Below, one piece after another: positions 5,005-28,991 of a stretch of DNA of 32,000 nucleotides (positions within the stretch are counted from its first letter, which is position 1; each line of letters begins with the position of its first letter). The position numbers and the translations under genes are program-made. The stretch covers positions 5,394,500 through 5,426,499 of the forward strand of contig CAVUSO010000001.1 of assembly GCA_963744145.1 (NCBI GenBank). The letters run 5' to 3'. Below the pieces are notes generated by a model. It did not search any database. It saw only the letters and a list, made by a program, of their open reading frames with translations, and was not told the DNA's origin. Source of the stretch: an uncultured cyanobacterium. GTDB lineage: Bacteria > Cyanobacteriota > Cyanobacteriia > Cyanobacteriales > CAWUOF01.

Positions 5005-5280
5005 ATGGAATTTGAATGGAATCCAGATAAAGCAACGCGAAACTTTGAGAAGCATGCTGTTTCATTTCAGGAAGCAGCAACTGTATTTAATGACCCCCTA
5101 TCTGTCACATTTCTCGATCCTCAGCATTCCATCAGAGAGCATCGCTATGTTATAATTGGCAGATCTGTTTTTGGGCAACTTTTAATTGTTGCACATACTG
5201 ATCGAAAAGAAAAAATACGAATTATCAGCGCCCGAAAAGCTACTCGCCAAGAGCAGAGGTTTTATGAAGAAGGATATTGA
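5005..5280 (+). CDS. brnT: BrnT-family (DUF497) type II toxin
   Basis: MEFEWNPDKATRNFEKHAVSFQEAATVFNDP... and ...IRIISARKATRQE are the characteristic BrnT/DUF497 sequence. 91 aa. Confidence 0.85.
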   Translation: MEFEWNPDKATRNFEKHAVSFQEAATVFNDPLSVTFLDPQHSIREHRYVIIGRSVFGQLLIVAHTDRKEKIRIISARKATRQEQRFYEEGY

Positions 5281-5616: not shown

Positions 5617-5991
5617 ATGACAACCCTAACCAACGAACAAACAGCGATTATCCGGACAGAAAGAGGACTGGCGATCGCAGGTACACGCATCACGATCTAC
5701 GACATTATGGACTATGTGACGGCTCAATATCCGCCGAAGTTTATCAGGGGATTATTTGACCTGACAGAGGAACAAATTAACGCGGCTTTAGCTTATATTG
5801 ATGTCAATCGTGCCAGTGTTGAAGCCGAGTATCAAATGGTTCTTAAGGAAGCAGAAGAACTGCGACTGTACTATGAAGAAAAAAATCGCGATCTCATTGC
5901 TCGACTTGCAGCCCAACCACCACAACCAGGAACCGAAGCTGCATGGGAAAAACTGCGAGCAGCCAAGGCAAAACGTGAGGCTAAAGCATGA
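5617..5991 (+). CDS. DUF433 domain protein (putative antitoxin-like) with C-terminal coiled-coil tail
   Basis: ERGLAIAGTRITIYDIMDYV...LTEEQINAALAYI matches the DUF433 signature. It is followed directly by a DUF5615 gene. Confidence 0.8.
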   Translation: MTTLTNEQTAIIRTERGLAIAGTRITIYDIMDYVTAQYPPKFIRGLFDLTEEQINAALAYIDVNRASVEAEYQMVLKEAEELRLYYEEKNRDLIARLAAQPPQPGTEAAWEKLRAAKAKREAKA

Positions 5992-5997
5992 TTTTTT

Positions 5998-6384
5998 TTG
6001 ATCGATCATAATCTCAATGGACAGGCCCTAATTTTCTTTGGCTCTATTGCTAATCAAGGTTGGCTTGATATCATTCCAATTCGTTTTGTTACCTTTGCAC
6101 AAATGGAATTGCCAATCAATAGCGATGACAGAGTAGTTTGGCGACTTGCTCAAGCAAATCAAATGATTTTACTTACAGCTAGTCGCAGTATGAAAGGTAA
6201 GGATTCTTTAGAACAAATAATGCGCGAAGAAAATACTCCTAATTCATTACCTGTGATTACTATTGGAAACGCGGATCGATTACTGAATGATTCGGAATAT
6301 CGAGAACGTTGTGTGGAAAGTCTAATTGAGATTGTGCTTAATATTAATAGCTATATAGGTGTAAGTAGGCTTTTGATCCCATAA
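5998..6384 (+). CDS. DUF5615 (Mut7-C/PIN-like) protein, putative toxin partner of DUF433
   Basis: (L)IDHNLNGQ... N-terminus and overall similarity in type to 27855-28202. Only a TTG start is available at 5998. The ATG at 5988, overlapping the upstream stop, is one base out of frame across a T8 run (5992-5999). Confidence 0.7.
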   Translation: MIDHNLNGQALIFFGSIANQGWLDIIPIRFVTFAQMELPINSDDRVVWRLAQANQMILLTASRSMKGKDSLEQIMREENTPNSLPVITIGNADRLLNDSEYRERCVESLIEIVLNINSYIGVSRLLIP

Positions 6385-10268: not shown

Positions 10269-10853
10269 TTATGACATCAACAATTTCATCAAATCATTCA
10301 CGGCATCATATTGATCAGACATCCGCGAATAAAATTCGATCAATCTCAAATCTAACTCTGGCAAAAGTTCACTCTTACTTACCAATTCATATCCGGTAGA
10401 ACGCAAACAATAAACTGAAATCACTCCATCTTCCCAGAACCAAACTTCCCCTACTCCCACTCGTCGATAAATTTCTAGTGTATCAATTCCACCACTAGTT
10501 ACTACTATCTCGATCGCCAAATCTGGAATTGACTTCTTTCTATCCAAACAATAAGACTCATCAGGTTCTTTCCTTGCCCCCAATTCCTTCATTCCAATCG
10601 TTGTACTACCACTTGCATAAAAACGAATGTTTTTTATTCGCATATATATTTCTAAAAGCTGACATAAAGTCTTTTTTGGTTCTTCATGAGCATCAGATAA
10701 GGGAGCCATAATTTCTAAATATCCATCTAAATAAGTTAAACGTGCGCCTGTTTTTGCTAACTCTACATCCAGCTTTTCCAAAGTCTCCCAGGTCAGATTT
10801 GACAGTAATGCTCCACTTTGACCTAATTCTATTTGAGAAGTTGCAATAACCAT
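10269..10853 (-). CDS. Uma2-family (DUF820) endonuclease
   Basis: LTYLDGYLEIMAPLSDAHEE...EPDESY...PDLAIEIVVTSGG...GVGEVWFWE is the typical Uma2 core. Near-duplicate of 13794-14378. Confidence 0.85.
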   Translation of the reverse strand: MVIATSQIELGQSGALLSNLTWETLEKLDVELAKTGARLTYLDGYLEIMAPLSDAHEEPKKTLCQLLEIYMRIKNIRFYASGSTTIGMKELGARKEPDESYCLDRKKSIPDLAIEIVVTSGGIDTLEIYRRVGVGEVWFWEDGVISVYCLRSTGYELVSKSELLPELDLRLIEFYSRMSDQYDAVNDLMKLLMS

Positions 10854-10973
10854 CTGATTTACCGTTGATAATCATTTTTTCAGTATAGCTAATTTTTGGT
10901 ACGATCGCACATCTTAACCCCAAATAAGGATTAATTAGTTAAACTAGAGTAATCAAAATAGAGGAAACGCAGG

Positions 10974-11501
10974 ATGGTACAAAAATTACCAACCCCAACT
11001 CAACCAGAGGTCATTTACCCGGATGATGATGGTCTACCCATGTCAAATCATACTGAACAATTTCGTTGGATCGTCATTATTAAGGAAAATTTAGAGCTGT
11101 TATTTGCTAAATCGACGGAAGTATTTGTCGCGGGAGACTTGCTCTGGTATCCGGTAGAAGGAGATAACACAATTCGTCAAGCACCAGATGTGATGGTCGT
11201 GTTTGGGAGACCAAAAGGAAGAAGAGGTTCCTATCAACAATGGTTAGAAAATCACATCGTGCCCCAGGTGGTATTTGAAATTTTATCTCCAGGAAATCGC
11301 CGACTAGAGATGGTCAATCGCGCTGATGTTGAAGCTGAGTATCAAATCGTGCTTAAGGAAGCTGAAGAACTGCGGCTGTATTATGAAAAAAAGAATCGCG
11401 ATTTGATTGCGAGAATTGCGGCGCAATCACCACAACCAGGAACCGAGGCTGCATGGGAAAAACTGCGAGCAGCTAAGGCTAAGTTTAAGTCTGAACTATA
11501 G
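10974..11501 (+). CDS. Chimeric ORF: first ~113 codons of the Uma2 gene (copy of 6669-) fused in frame to the last ~60 codons of the DUF433 gene (copy of 5806-5991)
   Basis: Residues 1-113 are nearly identical to 6669-7490 and the upstream 50 nt is also duplicated. After ...GNRRLEM the sequence switches to VNRADVEAEYQIVLKEAEELRLYYEKKNRDLIARIAAQSPQPGTEAAWEKLRAAKAK, matching the DUF433 protein tail. Confidence 0.6.
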   Translation: MVQKLPTPTQPEVIYPDDDGLPMSNHTEQFRWIVIIKENLELLFAKSTEVFVAGDLLWYPVEGDNTIRQAPDVMVVFGRPKGRRGSYQQWLENHIVPQVVFEILSPGNRRLEMVNRADVEAEYQIVLKEAEELRLYYEKKNRDLIARIAAQSPQPGTEAAWEKLRAAKAKFKSEL

Positions 11502-11554
11502 TTTTTTATCCCAAAGTATGATAGAGTTAGTGTGTCAAAAAATAATTAAATACT

Positions 11555-11995
11555 ATGACTATTGAAAATCTGGAAGCTGAGGTTCTTGCACTTCCACAAG
11601 ACTCTCAAGTAATATTGCTCTCGCGACTCCTAAAACACTTGGGACAAAGTAGGGAAATTGATCCAGAAGTTGCATCTAGCTGGGGTGAGGAAGCCCAAAG
11701 ACGCGATCGCGAAATGGATAGTGGTGAAGTTACTGGCATTCCGGCTGAACAAGTCTTTGATAAACGGGGTAAAGAACTTTATGAAAATGTGATCCGCGCT
11801 CAAGTAGAAACACCGGAGAATATTGGCAAGATTGTTTCAATTAATGTGGAGACGGGTGAATATGAAATTGGTGAAGACTTGGTAGTAACGAGTCGCAAAT
11901 TACAGGCTAAACAGGCTAATGCAATAATTTGGGCGGAACGGATTGGTTTTGATGCGGTTTATGCTGTTGGTGGTACATTGGTCAGGACTGCATAA
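11555..11995 (+). CDS. Fusion protein: putative addiction-module component (TIGR02574-like) N-terminal domain + small partner domain of clan AA protease genes
   Basis: Residues 1-70, LEAEVLALPQDSQVILLSRLL...DPEVASSWGEEAQRRDREMDSGEVTGIPAEQVF, match the TIGR02574 pattern. The remainder (IGKIVSINVETGEYEIGEDLVVTSRKLQAKQANAIIWAERIG) resembles 25376-25693. The stop abuts the protease start codon. Confidence 0.65.
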   Translation: MTIENLEAEVLALPQDSQVILLSRLLKHLGQSREIDPEVASSWGEEAQRRDREMDSGEVTGIPAEQVFDKRGKELYENVIRAQVETPENIGKIVSINVETGEYEIGEDLVVTSRKLQAKQANAIIWAERIGFDAVYAVGGTLVRTA

Positions 11996-12370
11996 ATGAT
12001 GCAAGGAAATGTAGTTGGGCGACAAGCTAGAATTAGTTTAACTTTGCGTCTGCCAGAAAATTCAGATATAGAAATTGAGTGTGTTGTTGATACAGGTTTT
12101 GAAGGTTTCTTGACTTTGCCATCGACTGCGATTGCTAAACTTGCGTTGCCTGATCTTGGACAAATTAATGCAAAGTTAGCTGATCATTCTAATGTGGCAA
12201 CTAACGTTTATTTGGCAACGATTTTGTGGAATGGTGTAGAAAAAGATGTTGCAGTGCTAGGAATGGGTCGTCGTCCGCTCATTGGGACTGCACTACTTGA
12301 AGATTATCATCTCAGTATAGACTTCTGTGATGGTGGTACGGTTCTTGTCGATGATATTTTGCGATCGTGA
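11996..12370 (+). CDS. Clan AA retropepsin-like aspartic protease (DTGF / AF_0612-type family)
   Basis: Active-site motif VVDTGFEGFLTLP, ~124 aa, with LIGTALLEDY near the C-terminus as in single-domain retropepsin-like proteases. Confidence 0.8.
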   Translation: MMQGNVVGRQARISLTLRLPENSDIEIECVVDTGFEGFLTLPSTAIAKLALPDLGQINAKLADHSNVATNVYLATILWNGVEKDVAVLGMGRRPLIGTALLEDYHLSIDFCDGGTVLVDDILRS

Positions 12371-12539
12371 GTGAGGAGGAATTTGATTGTAATTTTGGGT
12401 GCGATCGCAATTTGATTACCAACAGATATAGGGTGTGTCACCTGCGATAATTAATCGTATTAGTCAAAAATTGCCAGGTGACATACCCTACTACTAATTG
12501 CCAAAACATTAGTATTTTCATCTTTCATCTTTCATCTCA

Positions 12540-13268
12540 TCAAACTAGAGCTAAGAGAGCACCAATATTTTTTTTGACTTTATTTTCCTCTTCTAATCGT
12601 TTTTGTCTCTCTTTTCTTTCCGCTTCTTCTCTTTCTAATCTCTCTTTCCTTTTTCTTTCGTCTTTAGTTACTTCACGATAAATCAAATAACCAGCGCCAC
12701 CAACAGCAGCCGCTCCAATTACCCAAGGTGCAGCAGCTCTTGGTGCTGCTCCTAAACCAGCAGCACCAAGAGCACCTTCACCCGAATTATGTCTATGAGG
12801 TGCATGATAGTGAGGCTGATGGGAATGTTTGTGATTAGATAAGTGACTGGAAGTTGAAGGTGCATATACCCTCTGCCAAAAGTACCATCCACAGTAAGGT
12901 AAGTGTCCTCTTGGTCCATTACCTTCCCAAAAAAAGATATCGTCATAGCTTAACCAAGAATCTCCTTTATACCATCCTACATTGGTAATAAACTGTTGAT
13001 AATTTTCCCGGTTATAGATGTCTTTTTGTGTGCTAAAGCCAAAGTGAGAACTACGATCTAGCCATAGCTGGTCGATTTCTTTAATTTCTTTGTCCAGGCA
13101 GTTATCAATATCTAAATATAAATAACTACCATCTTTTCGAGAAGATATTTTGAGCATCAAAACTTTGGTCAGTTGATCAGCTTCTTTCCACAGATTTGCT
13201 GCTAGTTTTTCCTTTAGCAAAGTCATTAATTGCGCTTGACCTTGATCGGCATATTCACTATAAGACAT
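12540..13268 (-). CDS. GUN4-domain protein with His-rich linker, Gly/Ala TM segment and Lys/Glu-rich tail
   Basis: WKEADQLT...IKEIDQLWLDRSSHFGFSTQKDIY...FITNVGWY...GPRGHLP matches the GUN4 porphyrin-binding domain pattern. Then HLSNHKHSHQPHYHAPHRHN, then WVIGAAAVGGAGYLIY, then KDERKRKERLEREEAERKERQKRLEEE. Confidence 0.7.
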   Translation of the reverse strand: MSYSEYADQGQAQLMTLLKEKLAANLWKEADQLTKVLMLKISSRKDGSYLYLDIDNCLDKEIKEIDQLWLDRSSHFGFSTQKDIYNRENYQQFITNVGWYKGDSWLSYDDIFFWEGNGPRGHLPYCGWYFWQRVYAPSTSSHLSNHKHSHQPHYHAPHRHNSGEGALGAAGLGAAPRAAAPWVIGAAAVGGAGYLIYREVTKDERKRKERLEREEAERKERQKRLEEENKVKKNIGALLALV

Positions 13269-19512: not shown

Positions 19513-20489
19513 CTAAATACTCATTGCTAACATCCGTTGAATGGGTTGTAGTGCTGCTAAACGGGTTTCTTCGGGAAGCGTAATTTCTGGAGTACGGTTT
19601 TTCATGGCTAAATAAAGCTTTTCCAGAGTATTCAGACGCATATGAGGACACTCATTACAACTACACTGGTTCATGGGTGGTGCGGGAATGAAGTGTTTCT
19701 CTGGTGCTTGTTTTTGCATTTGATGAATAATTCCGGGTTCAGTAGCAACAATAAAACTCGAACTGGAACTGGAGCAAGCATATTTTAAGAGTGCAGTAGT
19801 AGAACCAATATAGTCTGCATGACGTAATACTGGTGGCTCACATTCTGGATGAGCAATCACTTCAGCATCGGGATGGACAATTTTCAGCTCGACAATTTTC
19901 TGTTCGGAAAATGTTTCATGGACGATACAACTACCTTGCCATAACACCATCTCTCTACCAGTCTGCTCCATTACATATCTCCCTAAATTACGATCTGGAG
20001 CAAAAATAATTGGTTGATCAGCGGGAATTTGATTAACAATTTTGACCACATTAGAACTGGTGCAAATAATGTCACTGAGAGCTTTAATATCGGCAGTACA
20101 GTTGATATAAGAAATGACTAAATGATTGGGATGGGCAGCTTTAAAAGCTGCAAAAGCATCTTTGGGACAACTATCAGCGAGGGAACAACCAGCTTTTAGA
20201 TCGGTAAAAGTACCAGTTTATTCGGGTTGAGAATTTTGGCAGTTTCTGCCATAAAGTGGACACCCGCAAAGACAATCACATCCGCATCGGTGTTGGCTGC
20301 TTTACGGGAAAGCTCTAGAGAATCACCAATGTAGTCAGCCACATCTTGAATATCAGGATCTTGGTAATAATGGGCTAAAACCACGGCATTCAGCTTTTTT
20401 TTCTCTTCTTCAATGAGAGTAAACAGATCCTGGTGGACTGGAATTGTAGTTTTGAGACTATCTTCGGAACGGATTAGAGTGGTAAACAC
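19513..20489 (-). pseudogene. nadA: Quinolinate synthase NadA interrupted by a single-base frameshift near 20199-20204
   Basis: The N-terminal ORF ([37 protein letters not shown]) stops at ...LVLLPI*. The next frame continues [13 protein letters not shown]...[19 protein letters not shown]...CIVHE...CSCNECPHM. Reading CCGATC as CCGGATC restores one ORF. Confidence 0.85.
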
Positions 20490-23092: not shown

Positions 23093-23509
23093 ATGGACCC
23101 AATAACTGCTGGTGCGATCGCACTAATTACTCTGCTGGTCAACAAAACTTTTGAGAAAACGGGCGAAATAGTTGTAAGTAAAGCTTTTGACCAAGCAGGT
23201 AATGTTCTCAACTTGCTCAAACACAAATCTCCCGAAACTGCCAAAATGATTGCAGCAGCAGAAAATCCTGCTTTACCTCCTGGTGAAACGGTATATATGG
23301 ATGCTGTGGTAGAAAAGGTACAATCAGAAGCCCAACGTGACCCGGAAATTAAGGCAGAGTTGGAAAAATTAGGGGCTATGATCGAAGCAGCGAAAAAGGT
23401 AGATCCGCAATTGGCTAATACTATTAATGAAAATTGGCAGGGGATATGTTTTAAAAATGCTAATCCTACTATTTCTAATAATACTTTTAATTTTGGTGGC
23501 AAAGGATGA
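23093..23509 (+). CDS. Small helical effector-like protein with N-terminal hydrophobic helix and a C-terminal N/Q/G-rich motif shared with the downstream NLR
   Basis: N-terminus is MDPITAGAIALITLLV. The C-terminus, INENWQGICFKNANPTISNNTFNFGGKG, mirrors residues 1-28 of 23506-24831. The stop overlaps the next start (ATGA). Confidence 0.65.
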   Translation: MDPITAGAIALITLLVNKTFEKTGEIVVSKAFDQAGNVLNLLKHKSPETAKMIAAAENPALPPGETVYMDAVVEKVQSEAQRDPEIKAELEKLGAMIEAAKKVDPQLANTINENWQGICFKNANPTISNNTFNFGGKG

Positions 23510-24831
23510 ATATTGAAAAAAATTGGCAGGGAATAAATTTTGAAGATGCCAATCCTAGTATTACGGGTAATCAATTTATCTTTAATAATCAAACACCTTC
23601 AATTCCTGTTTATAATATTCCTTATACTGGTGTTCTTAATTTTGTAGGACGAAAAACGGAACTGCAAACACTGCAAGGGCAATTCCAGAAGTGTGATGGT
23701 GTAGTCATTTCTGCTGTGGCGGGGATGGGTGGTGTGGGCAAAACTGAATTGGCGATTAAATATGCACGCACCCATGAACAAGATTATCCTGGAGGGATTT
23801 GCTGGTTATCTGCTAGAGATGAGGGTTTAGCTAATAATATTTTACAATTTGCGCTGCTTGATCTGAAGTTGGAAGTGCCGCAAAAATTAGGCGAAAAACT
23901 GCTATCTCTTAAAGAACAGGTAAGCTGGTGTTGGCAGCATTGGCAACCATCGGCGGGGGCAGTTTTATTGGTGTTAGATGATGTTACTATTTGGAAAAGT
24001 TGTCGAGATTTTATTCCCAAAATTAATCGCTTTAAGATTTTAATTACTACCCGATTACGACATCTCGATAGCAATTTTCTTCAGTTATCGTTAGATGTAT
24101 TTTCACCGGATGAAGCTTTAGAATTTTTGAGGAATTTGCTTGGGGAAAAGCGAGTAGCACAGGAACTGGAAATTGCTAAAGATTTATGTAAATGGCTGGG
24201 GTATCTGCCTTTGGGGTTGGAATTGGTAGGACGATATTTGGTGGAAGATCCTGATTTGTCTTTAATGAAAATGTGGGAGAGGTTAAGACAAAAACGGTTG
24301 GAAGATGAGGCAGTTAATCCTGGAGATGAAGATTTACAGGATACAGAAATGACAGCAAAGAGAGGAGTAAAAACTGCGTTTGAGTTAAGCTGGCAAGAAT
24401 TGGATGTGATGACACAGCAATTAGGGGAATTGTTGAGTTTGTTTGCGCCAGCTATTATTCCTTGGAAATTATTAGTTGAATCTATAGCTAAATTGCTGAA
24501 TTGGAATGAGGCAGAGGTTGATAAAGGAAAAAAGGAACTTTATAAGCGATTTTTAATTAAGAGGTTAGCAGAAAGAGAGGCTTGTTATGAAATTCACCCT
24601 TTGATTAGGGAGTTTTTGAAAGCAAAGATAGATGAGTCTGAACTAGCACAAGATGTCAAACAGGCTTTTGTAGAAGTGATGGTAACAATGGCCAAGGAAA
24701 TTCCTGATTCAATCACGATAGATTTAATTGAGAAGTTAAAAGTTGTAATTCCTCATCTAGAAGAAGTAGCGGAAAACTTGATTGATATAGTTAGGGATGA
24801 AGATTTATATTGCGTTTTTTTAATGGGTTAG
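23506..24831 (+). CDS. NB-ARC STAND NTPase (bacterial NLR) with N-terminal short motif; frame lost before its TPR region
   Basis: P-loop GMGGVGKT, Walker B LLVLDDV, ILITTR and GYLPLGLELVGRYL are canonical NB-ARC motifs. The N-terminus is MNIEKNWQGINFEDANPSITGNQFIFNN. Confidence 0.9.
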   Translation: MNIEKNWQGINFEDANPSITGNQFIFNNQTPSIPVYNIPYTGVLNFVGRKTELQTLQGQFQKCDGVVISAVAGMGGVGKTELAIKYARTHEQDYPGGICWLSARDEGLANNILQFALLDLKLEVPQKLGEKLLSLKEQVSWCWQHWQPSAGAVLLVLDDVTIWKSCRDFIPKINRFKILITTRLRHLDSNFLQLSLDVFSPDEALEFLRNLLGEKRVAQELEIAKDLCKWLGYLPLGLELVGRYLVEDPDLSLMKMWERLRQKRLEDEAVNPGDEDLQDTEMTAKRGVKTAFELSWQELDVMTQQLGELLSLFAPAIIPWKLLVESIAKLLNWNEAEVDKGKKELYKRFLIKRLAEREACYEIHPLIREFLKAKIDESELAQDVKQAFVEVMVTMAKEIPDSITIDLIEKLKVVIPHLEEVAENLIDIVRDEDLYCVFLMG

Positions 24832-25121
24832 GTAGATTTTATCAAGGTCAAGGATTATATAATTTAGCAGAACCCTGGTTAGAACAGTCTTTAAGCAAAA
24901 TAAAAGCAAAGTTGGGCAACGACCATCCCGATGTGGCTGCCAGTTTGAACAATCTGGCATTACTCTACAACAACCAAGGGAGATACGCAGAAGCGGAACC
25001 GTTATTCCTTGACGCTTTAGTAATATGCGAAAATTGTTTAGGAAAAGATCATCCTGGTACTATTGATATTCGTCAAAATCTAGATATACTTAAAGAATAT
25101 CTCAGCCAGAGTAAATATTAG
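24810..25121 (+). CDS. TPR (TPR_10/12-type) C-terminal segment of the NB-ARC protein, separated by a frameshift in a T7 run
   Basis: GLGRFYQGQGLYNLAEPW...DHPDVAASLNNLALLYNNQGRYAEAEPLF...DHPGT is the TPR type always fused to NB-ARC. Only a TTG start is available. Adding one T to the run at 24815-24821 joins it to 23506-24831. Confidence 0.8.
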   Translation: MRFFNGLGRFYQGQGLYNLAEPWLEQSLSKIKAKLGNDHPDVAASLNNLALLYNNQGRYAEAEPLFLDALVICENCLGKDHPGTIDIRQNLDILKEYLSQSKY

Positions 25122-25220: not shown

Positions 25221-25375
25221 TTACAGGCTGAAACCTTCGATATCTTGCTTATTGATTGCCAAAAATTCTGTAAAACCTTTATCCAGCATAGCCTCAACCG
25301 GAAAAATTAATCCCTCTCCTGTAATCAACTCAATCTCAAAAAATAATTCCCCTTTGCTGCCAAACCTCCCCTCAA
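25221..25375 (-). pseudogene. Truncated remnant of a clan AA aspartic protease gene (DTG degenerated to DKG)
   Basis: The minus-strand frame reads IEGRFGSKGELFFEIELITGEGLIFPVEAMLDKGFTEFLAINKQDIEGFSL*. This aligns by eye with residues 6-55 of 11996-12370. There is no canonical start, and it ends where the repeated segment begins. Confidence 0.4.
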
Positions 25376-25693
25376 TTATATTCTACCAGTTGCCCCTGAT
25401 TCATTCAAACAAAACATACAGTGGATAGTGTTTGGGTGTTTTTGCTGTGCCTTTTGGCTGGCTATTTCCTGATCAGAATCAATAAAATAATCCCCACTAT
25501 TGGGTTCAACTGCAATATACCAGCCATAGTGTTTCTCAATTAGTTCAGGAGATACTTGCTCAAAAATTTTTCGACAACGCTGATGAAAAGCTTCTCTCTC
25601 GGCTTTATGTCTAGCTTTTTCTGCGGGTGACCATTGAATTTCTGGAAAAATTCTGCCTCGACGGACAATTCTCTGGGGAGTAGATTGGGTCAT
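25376..25693 (-). CDS. Small partner protein of clan AA protease genes
   Basis: YGWYIAVEPNSGDYFIDSDQEIASQKAQQKHPNTIHCMF parallels IGKIVSINVETGEYEIGEDLVVTSRKLQAKQANAIIWAE in 11555-11995. It sits immediately upstream of the protease remnant. Confidence 0.55.
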   Translation of the reverse strand: MTQSTPQRIVRRGRIFPEIQWSPAEKARHKAEREAFHQRCRKIFEQVSPELIEKHYGWYIAVEPNSGDYFIDSDQEIASQKAQQKHPNTIHCMFCLNESGATGRI

Positions 25694-26000: not shown

Positions 26001-26321
26001 ATGATAGAAACAGAAAAAATTCTGCAAATTAGTCGGGCTATTGCTAGGGAATTTAAGCCAAACAAAATTATTTTATTTGGTTCATACGCTTATGGGAATC
26101 CTCAAGATGACTCAGATGTTGATTTATTAGTCATTTTGCCGTACAAGGGGAGTAATTTTCAGAAAAGTTGGGAAATTTTAAATAAAATTCAACCGAATTT
26201 TGCTCTAGATTTGTTAGTGCGAACTCCTGGAGATGTGGAGCAACGTCTCGCCTGGAATGATTTTTTTCTGCGGGAAATCATTGAAAAAGGAAAAGTGATT
26301 TATGAATCCGCTAACAGTTGA
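26001..26321 (+). CDS. Nucleotidyltransferase (MNT-type antitoxin of HEPN/MNT modules)
   Basis: LFGSYAYGNPQDDSDVDLLVI is the GSx10-11(D/E)xD minimal nucleotidyltransferase motif. It overlaps the HEPN ORF by 20 nt. Confidence 0.85.
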   Translation: MIETEKILQISRAIAREFKPNKIILFGSYAYGNPQDDSDVDLLVILPYKGSNFQKSWEILNKIQPNFALDLLVRTPGDVEQRLAWNDFFLREIIEKGKVIYESANS

Positions 26322-26484
26322 ATGGGTTGATAAAGCTGAGGGGGATTTTATTACAGCTTTGCGGGAGTTACGAGCCAGGAAATCTCCCAACTATGATGCG
26401 GCATCTTTTCACGCTCAACAGTGTGTTGAGAAATATTTGAAAGCGCATTTGCAAGAATCTGGAATTGCTTTCAGTAAAACATAG
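26302..26484 (+). CDS. HEPN-domain protein, C-terminally truncated (60 aa)
   Basis: FHAQQCVEKYLKAHL is the first HEPN helix pair. The ORF stops at ...AFSKT* before the RX4-6H motif region. An unrelated cassette follows. Confidence 0.7.
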   Translation: MNPLTVEWVDKAEGDFITALRELRARKSPNYDAASFHAQQCVEKYLKAHLQESGIAFSKT

Positions 26485-26547: not shown

Positions 26548-26832
26548 ATGCAAGCATATAAACTCAAAGGAAAAATAGATCCATCTGGTAATTTAGTGAT
26601 TACCGAAACCGTAAATTTACCCCCTGGAGATGTGGAAGTGATAGTCTGGCAAACTACTGAGATGTTTGATAACACTACAACTTCAGCAAGTGAACTACGA
26701 TCAGAAACACCAAAGAGAAAATCTAGGGTAAAAGCATTTGAGGGTTTATTTGAAAATGCTCCACCCATCCCACCAAACTTTGATCCAGACCTAGCTAAAT
26801 GGGAATATTTAAAAGAGAAACATAAGCTGTGA
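26548..26832 (+). CDS. VapB-like antitoxin
   Basis: MQAYKLKGKIDPSGNLVITETVNLPPGDVEVIVW is an N-terminus common to cyanobacterial PIN-associated antitoxins. The stop overlaps the GTG start of the PIN gene (GTGA). Confidence 0.6.
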   Translation: MQAYKLKGKIDPSGNLVITETVNLPPGDVEVIVWQTTEMFDNTTTSASELRSETPKRKSRVKAFEGLFENAPPIPPNFDPDLAKWEYLKEKHKL

Positions 26833-27248
26833 AAATCTTGCTAGATACTAATATAGTTGTTGATGATGCCCTGGAAAGACAGCCTTTTTGGGATGCAAGC
26901 GAGCAAGTTTTATCCCTGATTGAACAAAGACAAATTGAAAGTTATATTTCAGCTTCAACTTTTAGTGATTTGTATTACATCATCCGTAGAGCAAGAGGTA
27001 AAGATTGGACGTTTACTTATTTAAACCAGTTAGTTACCTTTTGCCGAATTGCTACTGTAAATCAGGCAGTAATTACAATGGCTATCACCGCAAATTTTAG
27101 TGATTTTGAAGATGCCATTCAATACGCCACTGCTGTATTAAATCAATTAGATGTGATTATTACCCGTAATCCTAAAGACTTCTCTGTTGTTCAACCGCGA
27201 ATTCTTACTCCTCAGCAATTAATTGAGGAATTAAAAAATTCTTGTTGA
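26829..27248 (+). CDS. vapC: PIN-domain ribonuclease toxin (VapC-like)
   Basis: ILLDTNIVVDD (first acidic residue), FEDAIQYATA and VIITRNPKDF are PIN signatures. 139 aa. Confidence 0.85.
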   Translation: MKILLDTNIVVDDALERQPFWDASEQVLSLIEQRQIESYISASTFSDLYYIIRRARGKDWTFTYLNQLVTFCRIATVNQAVITMAITANFSDFEDAIQYATAVLNQLDVIITRNPKDFSVVQPRILTPQQLIEELKNSC

Positions 27249-27854: not shown

Positions 27855-28202
27855 TTACAAAGGTAAGTATTGAACTTGGTTGATTAAATCTTCAGGGTCA
27901 CTTACTTTCGCAAGTATTTCTAAGTCGCGCACACAATCGCCAACGGTTACATACTGTTGATGCGCGTAGATAACCCCACTAAAATTTATTCCCTCTTGCT
28001 GGTGATGATTTGCCATGACTAAAAAATCATCATCTTGGGTAAAAATAACCCGCTGAAGTTCCGTAGCACGATCAAGTAAAATCGGATCAGGTGTGCCAGT
28101 TCTGCCATCTTCTTGTACGGTGAGAACGTCTATCCCTCGCAATTTTAAACCATTTGTAATAGCTCGGCGGACATGTTCATCGATGTACAGAGCTAGGGTC
28201 AT
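27855..28202 (-). CDS. DUF5615 (Mut7-C/PIN-like) protein, putative toxin
   Basis: LYIDEHVRRAITNGLKLRGIDVLTVQEDG...VIFTQDDDF is typical of DUF5615. The start overlaps the DUF433 stop (ATGA at 28199-28202). Confidence 0.8.
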   Translation of the reverse strand: MTLALYIDEHVRRAITNGLKLRGIDVLTVQEDGRTGTPDPILLDRATELQRVIFTQDDDFLVMANHHQQEGINFSGVIYAHQQYVTVGDCVRDLEILAKVSDPEDLINQVQYLPL

Positions 28203-28516
28203 TTAATTAGCCCTTGGATGCGAAGTTTTTTAACTAAAGCAGATTCACCAGTTTGTTGACGTAACTTTTCAACCTGCTCGAATCGTTGCTGCATATCGGC
28301 ATCTAGTTCTTCTTTGTTATCCCAATAATAAGCTAAGGCAGAATAAATTTGACTCATGCTTAAATAGGGGTGTTGAAATTTAATTTCTTCGGGACTCCAG
28401 CCAAAACTAAGATGACCGGAAACTAATTCAATTACTTTCATCGTTGTTCCGGCGATGTAGGGAACTTTGTTTTCATCCAGTTCTATATATTTGTGTTGAG
28501 TAGCAGTCAAGTTCAT
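28199..28516 (-). CDS. DUF433 domain protein, putative antitoxin
   Basis: From the ATG at 28516: MNLTATQHKYIELDENKVPYIAGTTMKVIELV...SPEEIKFQHPYLSMSQIYSALAYY is the DUF433 signature. The longer track ORF, reaching 28699, runs through the promoter-like repeat. Confidence 0.8.
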   Translation of the reverse strand: MNLTATQHKYIELDENKVPYIAGTTMKVIELVSGHLSFGWSPEEIKFQHPYLSMSQIYSALAYYWDNKEELDADMQQRFEQVEKLRQQTGESALVKKLRIQGLIK

Positions 28517-28529
28517 CAAATTTGCCTTG

Positions 28530-28567
28530 TTGCTGATTACACTATAATTATAGCAGATTTTTGTGAT
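28530..28567 (-). promoter_or_regulatory. Shared promoter/operator-like element with palindrome CTATAATTATAG (copy 2)
   Basis: Identical to 25768-25805 and located 14-51 nt upstream of the DUF433 ATG. Confidence 0.35.
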
Positions 28568-28616
28568 TCGGCTGATAAAGATACGGTGAGCGATTGAATC
28601 CGGTTGATTAATTCTG

Positions 28617-28991
28617 TTAACCTTGCCCGTTGCCTTGGTTTCTCTGTTGAAGTTGTAAATATTCCCAGATGCGTCTAATCTCGGCTCGATCTTCTGCACT
28701 ACGTTCTGCTAATTCCGTATTGCGTTGTGCTAGTTCGCGATCGTGTTGTGCTAATTCGATATTGCGTTGTGCCAATTCCAACATAAATCCGGACAAGTTG
28801 GTAACAGTAGCCGTCAATTGCCGTTGGCTCTCGAAGAGAGAATCTACCTTATCAGTAATAACCGAAAATTCTCCCTGAAGTGCGAGGATTTCATCAAGCA
28901 AGATATTCGTTCTTTTCCCAAATTCGGTCTCGTCCTGACTAACTCGTTCTCTTAACGCTGTTATTTGTTCTTGTAGTGAATTGGTTTCCAT
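28617..28991 (-). CDS. Coiled-coil hypothetical protein
   Basis: 124 aa with heptad-like repeats (ELAQRNIELAQHDRELAQRNTELAERS). No recognisable catalytic motif. Confidence 0.5.
   Translation of the reverse strand: METNSLQEQITALRERVSQDETEFGKRTNILLDEILALQGEFSVITDKVDSLFESQRQLTATVTNLSGFMLELAQRNIELAQHDRELAQRNTELAERSAEDRAEIRRIWEYLQLQQRNQGNGQG

Follow-up and report, generated by a model that had tools for sequence, protein, structure and literature searches.

A two-gene partner-protease cassette of cyanobacteria with toxin-antitoxin-like features and a retropepsin-like protease as its candidate toxin

The stretch of DNA analysed here, called the window, comprises 32,000 nucleotides (nt) from an uncultured cyanobacterium (GTDB lineage Cyanobacteriota; Cyanobacteriia; Cyanobacteriales; CAWUOF01; assembly GCA_963744145.1, contig CAVUSO010000001.1, positions 5,394,500 to 5,426,499 of the forward strand), and carries two small adjoining open reading frames (ORFs), named ORF A and ORF B (Table 1). 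ORF A encodes an antitoxin-type domain joined to a partner domain, and ORF B a retropepsin-like aspartic protease. The stop codon of ORF A abuts the start codon of ORF B with zero nucleotides between them, as an earlier note on this DNA had stated, and the junction is read as a likely sign of translational coupling. A Shine-Dalgarno sequence is evident neither at the first ATG of ORF A nor at its internal Met54, and a palindrome looked for upstream of ORF A was not found. At 12429-12490, about 60 nt past the stop of ORF B, two 16-nt arms (94% complementary) form an inverted repeat around a 30-nt spacer; as no T-run follows it, it is unlike an intrinsic terminator. Judged from sequence comparisons, partner and protease would form an autonomous, mobile two-gene cassette of the toxin-antitoxin (TA) type, a reading to which a probability of roughly 55% is given.

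Table 1. Features of the window (aa, amino acids), with the two copies of the pair first
Feature	Position	Strand	Description
ORF A	11555-11995	+	146 aa; antitoxin-type domain and partner domain; TAA stop at 11993-11995
ORF A N-terminal domain	11555..11755	+	PF09720 'Unstab_antitox' (putative addiction-module antitoxin), residues 1-67
ORF A C-terminal partner domain	11756..11995	+	DUF5678-like, ~79 aa, residues 68-146, plus TAA; proposed antidote/inhibitor of the protease
ORF B	11996-12370	+	Single-domain clan-AA (retropepsin-like) DTGF aspartic protease, 124 aa; proposed toxic/effector component
Junction TAA/ATG	11993..11998	+	ORF A stop abutting ORF B start; sequence GCA TAA ATG ATG CAA
Second-copy partner	25376..25693	-	Intact 105-aa protein of a related family, DUF5678 domain-containing by UniRef naming
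Second-copy protease pseudogene	25221..25376	-	51 codons (IEGRFGSKGELFFEIELITGEGLIFPVEAMLDKGFTEFLAINKQDIEGFSL*)
DUF433-family 3' end	11313..11501	+	Last 61 codons; left boundary of the block in common with Microcoleus relatives
BrnT	5005-5280		
Two DUF433/DUF5615 pairs	5617-6384 and 27855-28699		
MNT nucleotidyltransferase, then truncated HEPN	26001-26484	+	MNT intact, 106 aa; HEPN 60 aa, profile positions 3-53 of 117
PIN_3 gene	26829-27248		

ORF B matches the NCBIfam model TIGR03698 (clan_AA_DTGF) with 80.6 bits against a cutoff of 57.35, residues 13-114 aligning with positions 2-106 of the 107 in the profile, which bears out its earlier description as a single-domain clan AA aspartic protease with the motif VVDTGFEGF. 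This motif occupies residues 30-38, with the codons of the catalytic D-T-G at 12089-12097, and the second, psi-psi-Gly motif reads RRPLIGTALL (residues 92-101). Across 39 homologues of ORF B the residues D32, T33, G34, F35, R93, P94, L95, and G97 are invariant; since the catalytic motifs do not vary in intact copies, protease activity appears to be under selection. ORF B has no match in Pfam, and sequence and profile searches of the PDB returned nothing for either ORF A or ORF B. The AlphaFold2 model of the ORF B monomer is of low confidence (mean predicted local distance difference test score, pLDDT, of 57, with a disordered C-terminus), because the input alignment was shallow. A Foldseek search of the PDB with this low-confidence model gave as best matches the proteases of equine infectious anaemia virus, foamy virus, and human immunodeficiency virus, together with Ddi1 (probability up to 0.98, E = 0.05), and ORF B presumably acts as a homodimer, like the retropepsins. 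A retroelement origin of the protease was considered and rejected: its neighbourhood holds neither a reverse transcriptase nor an integrase, and there is no Rfam match.

The partner domain, residues 68-146 of ORF A, is matched by no NCBIfam model and by no Pfam model at E <= 0.1. AlphaFold2 predicts for it a compact alpha-beta-beta-alpha-beta fold with a pLDDT of 96-98. Stand-alone homologues are numerous: about 390 clusters of 89-90 aa share 75-90% identity with it over the partner domain, and a global representative library yields 898 partner clusters (50% identity) at E <= 1e-3, mostly of about 90 aa, with a strongly conserved C-terminal tail (RIGy.AVYA.GG.L.RT). The gathering score of Pfam PF18929 (DUF5678) is reached neither by the C-terminal half of ORF A nor by the 105-aa protein of the second copy. 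Several of the 362 homologue clusters of the latter are named 'DUF5678 domain-containing' in UniRef, and P0504, a distant relative described below, matches PF18929 with E = 4.5e-4 and 20.4 bits (gathering score 23.2), so that kinship of the partner to DUF5678, as judged by profile comparison, is real though sub-threshold. DUF5678 has no assigned function, and in the literature searched a single, unrelated paper mentions it.

P0504 (L166:935-1876) is a single ORF of 313 aa on a metagenomic contig of high guanine-cytosine content, in which two partner domains are followed by a DTGF protease domain. This natural partner-partner-protease fusion is suggestive of a physical link between partner and protease. 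Tandem proteins with two or three partner domains and no protease also occur (P0363, P0369, P0370, and P0432), and together with P0504 they are consistent with a partner that binds stoichiometrically. Another candidate array, P0408 (1098 aa, seven matching stretches), was a false positive, namely a Y_Y_Y/amidase protein.

Two surveys trace the pair beyond the window, and in both the intact or broken state of each locus was assigned with hidden Markov models (HMMs) run on six-frame translations. A metagenome scan with the protease as query gave 74 loci, and an intact partner lies directly upstream in 40 out of 40 intact proteases with enough upstream sequence; in two further, distant protease relatives (38% identity) the partner is divergent. 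The partner, used as query in a genome scan with a narrow alignment, gave 266 loci, the best 80 of which are labelled cyanobacterial save for three labelled 'uncultured bacterium' and one binned as Candidatus Gracilibacteria. Pairing is also seen in other subfamilies, in which a partner of 105 aa precedes a protease of 120 aa or, on the plasmid pCC7120alpha and a Tolypothrix plasmid, one of 90-91 aa precedes one of 125-126 aa. The earlier note had made its case depend on conservation of the gene pairing across genomes, and the pairing is now found in many genomes and metagenomes. The junctions of 89 intact pairs are tight: 65 overlap by 4 nt (GTGA/ATGA), 13 by 1 nt, and 7 have zero spacing (85 of 89 together). 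In 61 of the 89, GTG is the start codon of the protease.

The two genes differ in what happens when one of them is lost. The genome survey has 77 loci where the partner is intact; 48 of them also have an intact protease, and in 29 it is destroyed. The lesions include nonsense mutations at codons 28 and 36, frameshifts, varied 3' truncations, internal deletions, and near-total deletions that spare no more than the first 10-20 codons or a few at the end. These lesions differ between loci and thus point to many independent events. Set against 0 destroyed partners at the 40 intact proteases, the 29 of 77 give a Fisher exact p of 6.7e-7, a value that overstates the significance, as each survey drew on its own collection and the loci lack phylogenetic independence.

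The second copy in the window shows the same pattern. It had been described as a decayed version of the pair whose partner resembles the C-terminal half of ORF A, and three kinds of comparison agree on the resemblance: a weak BLASTP match (E = 2e-4), the partner family HMM, which in the six-frame window finds the 105-aa ORF as its sole other match (E = 0.0025), and a profile-profile alignment with hhalign of the two families (97.1% probability, E = 6e-11). The 105-aa partner has homologues in Gloeothece citriformis PCC 7424 and Cylindrospermum PCC 7417 that overlap by 4 nt with the intact gene of a 120-aa DTGF protease downstream of them, and the pseudogene is, by eye, about 70% identical to the N-termini of such proteases (L001:3315-3677, L003:3315-3677). 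Pairwise BLASTP with ORF B had not detected it, and the narrow protease HMM got no further than E = 0.46; the homology became clear only once the comparison was made with the correct subfamily. Alignment of the DNA reveals three lesions: ATGA has become ATAA, so that the protease start is lost and the partner stop kept; ACA has become AAA, turning DTG into DKG; and the gene is truncated at its 3' end, homology ending near 25226 after about 150 nt (~50 codons). The pair therefore does occur twice in the window, once intact and once decayed, and on the DNA alignment the second copy is a retained orphan partner adjoining a dead protease. On the other side of the remnant lie two ORFs that overlap in different frames, one STAND/NB-ARC-like (441 aa, 23506-24831) and one TPR-like (103 aa, 24810-25121); the two, whose families were assigned by reading the sequence, may be one frameshifted gene (23506-25121, forward strand) that ends about 100 nt from the remnant.

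That the protease occurs only with its partner while the partner is tolerated alone fits a protease that is harmful unless the partner is present. Under the proposed mechanism, unchecked activity of the downstream protease (~122-124 aa), presumably as a homodimer, would harm the cell, and the upstream DUF5678-like protein (~80-90 aa) would neutralise it, most likely as a stoichiometric binding partner or inhibitor. The overlapping stop and start codons and the weak GTG would cause the protease to be made after the partner and in smaller amounts. A genome would be free to lose the protease and unable to lose the partner as long as the protease is intact. The opposite polarity, in which the partner is harmful and the protease is an antidote that degrades it, is very improbable: protease-type antidotes are conceivable and the partner is the more conserved gene of the pair (ratio of non-synonymous to synonymous substitution rates, dN/dS, of 0.145 for the partner half of ORF A, pooled over pairs of 17 unique fusion ORFs), but the 29 genome loci and the second copy of the window keep an intact partner beside a destroyed protease, a combination that a toxic partner would make lethal, and the partner-first order matches the usual antitoxin-first arrangement.

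The strongest competing explanation, although still an unlikely one, is a protease with a cognate substrate, precursor, or cofactor in a non-toxic and non-selfish role, for example regulated proteolysis under stress, and with a partner that has a function of its own. In its favour, both genes are under strong purifying selection; orphan partners match the family HMM as well as paired ones do; in P0504, the conserved partner tail runs straight into the protease, as in a polyprotein; and housekeeping genes surround many of the loci. A protease that is merely useless alone, however, predicts an intact protease with a broken partner about as often as the reverse, whereas 0 of 40 and 29 of 77 are seen. 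The patchy, multi-copy, plasmid-borne occurrence and the insertion within other operons are atypical of a housekeeping pair, and the weak GTG start with the overlapping junction suggests that the dose of protease is deliberately limited.

Interrupted protease genes that may still be in use were also encountered in the survey that started from the protease. The alleles L134:903-1268 and L135:2001-2366 (= L136:811-1176) are 81% identical in DNA and share an in-frame TAG at codon 78, the position of an invariant Trp, and an allele from a third lineage (L125:932-1294) has a TGA at codon 77. Between L134 and L135, dN/dS is 0.12 before the TAG and 0.03 after it (22 synonymous and 4 non-synonymous differences), and the low values on either side of the TAG make it seem that the interrupted gene is still under purifying selection. 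The in-frame TAG could be a site of leaky read-through that attenuates the protease.

Regarding their genomic distribution, the partner and protease together look like a self-contained cassette, which on the survey data is widespread in cyanobacteria, on chromosomes and on plasmids, and patchy. Several genomes carry multiple copies (two in several of them), and one contig of 406 kb has three or four. Relatives of the protease were found on 11 cyanobacterial plasmids, the upstream partner being confirmed on pCC7120alpha and on the Tolypothrix plasmid. In Nostoc sp. PCC 7120, the pair on pCC7120alpha (L167:2732-3381 = 280759-281408) belongs to the third subfamily, has a 4-nt overlap, consists of WP_044523651.1 (90 aa) and WP_010999818.1 (126 aa), and lies near a transposase and nucA/nuiA. 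In Gloeothece citriformis PCC 7424 (L001:3001-3677), the pair sits between hoxY and hoxH in the bidirectional hydrogenase operon, and on the plasmid pNSMS101 of Nostoc sp. MS1 (L168:2726-3363) it sits between pglZ and pglX of a type 1 bacteriophage exclusion (BREX-1) system in which pglX is further broken up by an IS630 element. One further copy adjoins ParD. The directly flanking ORFs, 150 in number, match 153 Pfam families, of which the commonest are AAA (6), AAA_16 (6), Uma2 (5), DUF433 (4), DUF5615 (3), and DUF2887 (3), and no third gene recurs.

Some of these neighbourhoods raise the question of a role in defence. Protease effectors are known from other defence systems, such as Lit, CHAT/Craspase, and CalpL, and in an anti-phage abortive-infection module the partner would hold the protease until a phage cue, upon which host or phage proteins would be cleaved. 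This is a functional elaboration of the TA reading rather than a strict alternative; its support is circumstantial, and it is less probable than the non-toxic role discussed above. It draws on copies beside or inside BREX-1, type ISP restriction-modification, and NB-ARC/STAND NTPase loci, and on a weak match in PADLOC-DB v2 to the aspartyl protease associated with type III CRISPR (clustered regularly interspaced short palindromic repeats) operons of Sulfolobales (PEPT_D, E = 1.4e-3). That match and the one to 'protease' (E = 0.018) are marginal only, the partner proteins match nothing in the same database, and membership of the pair in it is not significant. Its neighbourhood is also heterogeneous, a sensor domain is absent from the pair, and a scan of viral contigs found no relatives of the pair that might signal an arms race. 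The island location put forward in the earlier note is therefore a moderate argument: BREX-1, type ISP, NB-ARC, and TA genes do lie near copies of the pair, but the mixed neighbours, the marginal PADLOC matches, and the lack of viral relatives take away from it.

Several points weigh against a TA-like cassette in general. In addition to the marginal database matches and the overstated p value, the one-sided decay is in part what would be expected if the partner had an independent useful function. Many of the 150 flanking genes are housekeeping genes, and the P0504 fusion is known from one metagenomic contig only. The AlphaFold2 model of the partner has no significant structural relative by Foldseek in the PDB or BFVD, and Pfam and NCBIfam detect no DNA-binding domain in it, a domain that most type II antitoxins possess, though not all.

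In other respects the pair resembles type II TA systems such as ParDE, RelBE, and VapBC. Two small co-directional genes overlap at stop and start with the presumed antidote first; the pair is multi-copy, patchy, borne on plasmids and islands, and located among bona fide TA genes; the downstream gene often decays while the upstream gene is kept; and the partner in the window carries a genuine antitoxin-family domain. The differences lie in the components. The presumed toxin is a clan-AA aspartic protease and not a nuclease, kinase, gyrase poison, or acetyltransferase, and the presumed antitoxin departs from most of its type II counterparts in having no recognisable DNA-binding domain and a fold without a match in the PDB. 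The suggestion of a toxin/antidote or defence module made in the earlier note thus gains from the conserved pairing, the decayed copy, the one-sided decay, the overlapping junctions, the multi-copy, patchy, and plasmid-borne occurrence, and the natural fusion P0504, and loses from a defence-island argument that is moderate and from a domain fusion that does not define the system.

This fusion is genuine nonetheless at the level of the protein family. PF09720 proteins are stand-alone small antitoxins encoded beside genes for ParE/RelE-type (PF05016) toxins, and residues 1-67 of ORF A resemble them over the full PF09720 profile, yet are fused and have no adjacent ParE/RelE toxin gene. The match covers residues 13-67 and profile positions 2-54 of 54, with E = 3e-9 and 37.2 bits (gathering score 23.3), so that the assignment of an N-terminal antitoxin domain survives a profile search; the narrower model TIGR02574, named in the earlier note, scores 14.6 bits, below its cutoff of 31.9, and the label 'TIGR02574-like' holds for a complete domain at the Pfam level only. 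AlphaFold2 models the domain as helical with only moderate confidence. Fusions of 144-155 aa form about 34 protein clusters, all of them from Oscillatoriales (Kamptonema, Microcoleus, Planktothrix, and Argonema), compared with about 390 stand-alone clusters. The use of the fusion as support for the module is thereby restricted: it is real and constrained, but confined to one clade, and on this distribution it is best seen as a secondary, lineage-specific add-on and not a core feature.

Read-through or annotation could mimic such a fusion, the true product starting at the internal Met54. A start there would give a protein of 93 aa, close to the size of a stand-alone partner, N-terminally truncated relatives exist (P0035-P0037, 95-103 aa), several fusion proteins now score below the Pfam threshold of PF09720, and neither start of ORF A has an evident Shine-Dalgarno sequence. 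This possibility is nevertheless improbable, given that the frame is open from the first ATG in 17 of 17 unique fusion ORFs from at least four genera, that the full PF09720 profile is matched, and that the domain boundary is precise, the PF09720 domain replacing the first ~12 residues of the stand-alone partner exactly at the domain end. In the same pooled pairwise comparison, dN/dS is 0.29 for the PF09720 half and 0.30 for codons 1-53 before Met54, values that indicate translation of the domain and a constraint on it that is looser than on the partner half.

In the TA-like scheme, the partner of the intact copy would thus have gained a complete PF09720 domain in place of its own first ~12 residues. 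A deletion within a TA gene array is the probable source of the fusion, having removed a ParE/RelE-type toxin and joined the orphan antitoxin to the next gene. At present the extra domain may provide cover for a toxin encoded elsewhere, render the partner unstable, or be purely structural. No ParE/RelE gene is found among the ORFs at 10269-13268, where the neighbours are Uma2, a Uma2/DUF433 chimera, the protease, and GUN4. In relatives, the neighbours of the fusion locus include DUF433/PIN-like, UPF0175/DUF3368, Uma2, type ISP restriction-modification, and NB-ARC genes, and a DUF433 antitoxin-type gene lies directly upstream of the fusion gene. Only the last 61 codons of that gene are left in the window, where the ORF at 10974-11501 (forward strand) is a chimera of a Uma2 fragment (match at residues 24-111) joined in frame to the C-terminal 61 residues of DUF433. 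Over these 61 aa it shares 85% identity with the protein encoded immediately before the fusion gene in the Microcoleus relatives (L015), and the chimera indicates recombination or deletion in the mosaic of the window.

The single-domain retropepsin-like proteases of prokaryotes are regarded as similar to the ancestors of retroviral and pepsin proteases, and to our knowledge almost none of them has a known role. They have been catalogued, although little is known of them, and ORF B agrees with the TIGR03698/COG5550 proteases among them ('pSNCAPs') in its length of about 120 aa, its DTGF motif, and its second hydrophobic-hydrophobic-Gly motif (PMC2642776). It differs from the catalogued members in its obligate upstream partner and cassette behaviour, which were found nowhere in the literature searched. 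At the level of the clan, and by description only, a retropepsin-like fold and a catalytic DTG are shared with RimB of Pseudomonas, which serves in the control of ribosome modification (PMC11957791), and with the Rlo proteases of P. aeruginosa, which are secreted stress and biofilm factors (bioRxiv 10.1101/2025.03.18.643919); in the accessible portions of these two reports, neither is described as a two-gene cassette with a DUF5678-like partner. Aspartyl proteases are not mentioned in a comparative survey of type II TA systems from 2009 (PMC2701414) or in TASmania (PMC6504116), and the literature search found no description of the partner-protease pair.

What would be new, with the probability given at the outset for the TA-like mechanism, is both the toxin chemistry and the antidote fold of a TA-like module. 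A broader and more tentative reading, which falls somewhat short of even odds, joins the separate observations. The pair would be the first TA or abortive-infection family with a retropepsin-like toxic effector, held by a small DUF5678-like inhibitor of a previously unseen fold, and the dose of the effector would be limited by GTG starts, by overlaps and, in one lineage, by a conserved in-frame TAG. In that case the PF09720 fusion would be a two-headed antidote, directed both at the protease and at a ParE/RelE-type toxin encoded at another site. If a TA or defence role is true, it would provide a function for two widespread families, TIGR03698 and the DUF5678-like proteins, add a new enzymatic class to the known toxins, and make available a protein inhibitor of a retropepsin-type protease that is natural and genetically encoded. 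Since the alpha plasmid of Nostoc/Anabaena PCC 7120 bears a pair, a model organism is at hand in which the hypothesis can be put to a direct test.

The window as a whole is rich in TA and defence-type genes, and in addition to those listed in Table 1 it holds four Uma2 genes and NB-ARC/STAND NTPases. The gene for quinolinate synthase, NadA, is split on the reverse strand (19513-20489), with 19513-20049 covering positions 126-295 and 20196-20489 covering positions 3-73, about 146 nt apart, which could reflect a frameshifted pseudogene, a sequencing error, or an insertion. The MNT and HEPN genes are another instance of an intact antitoxin beside a truncated toxin.

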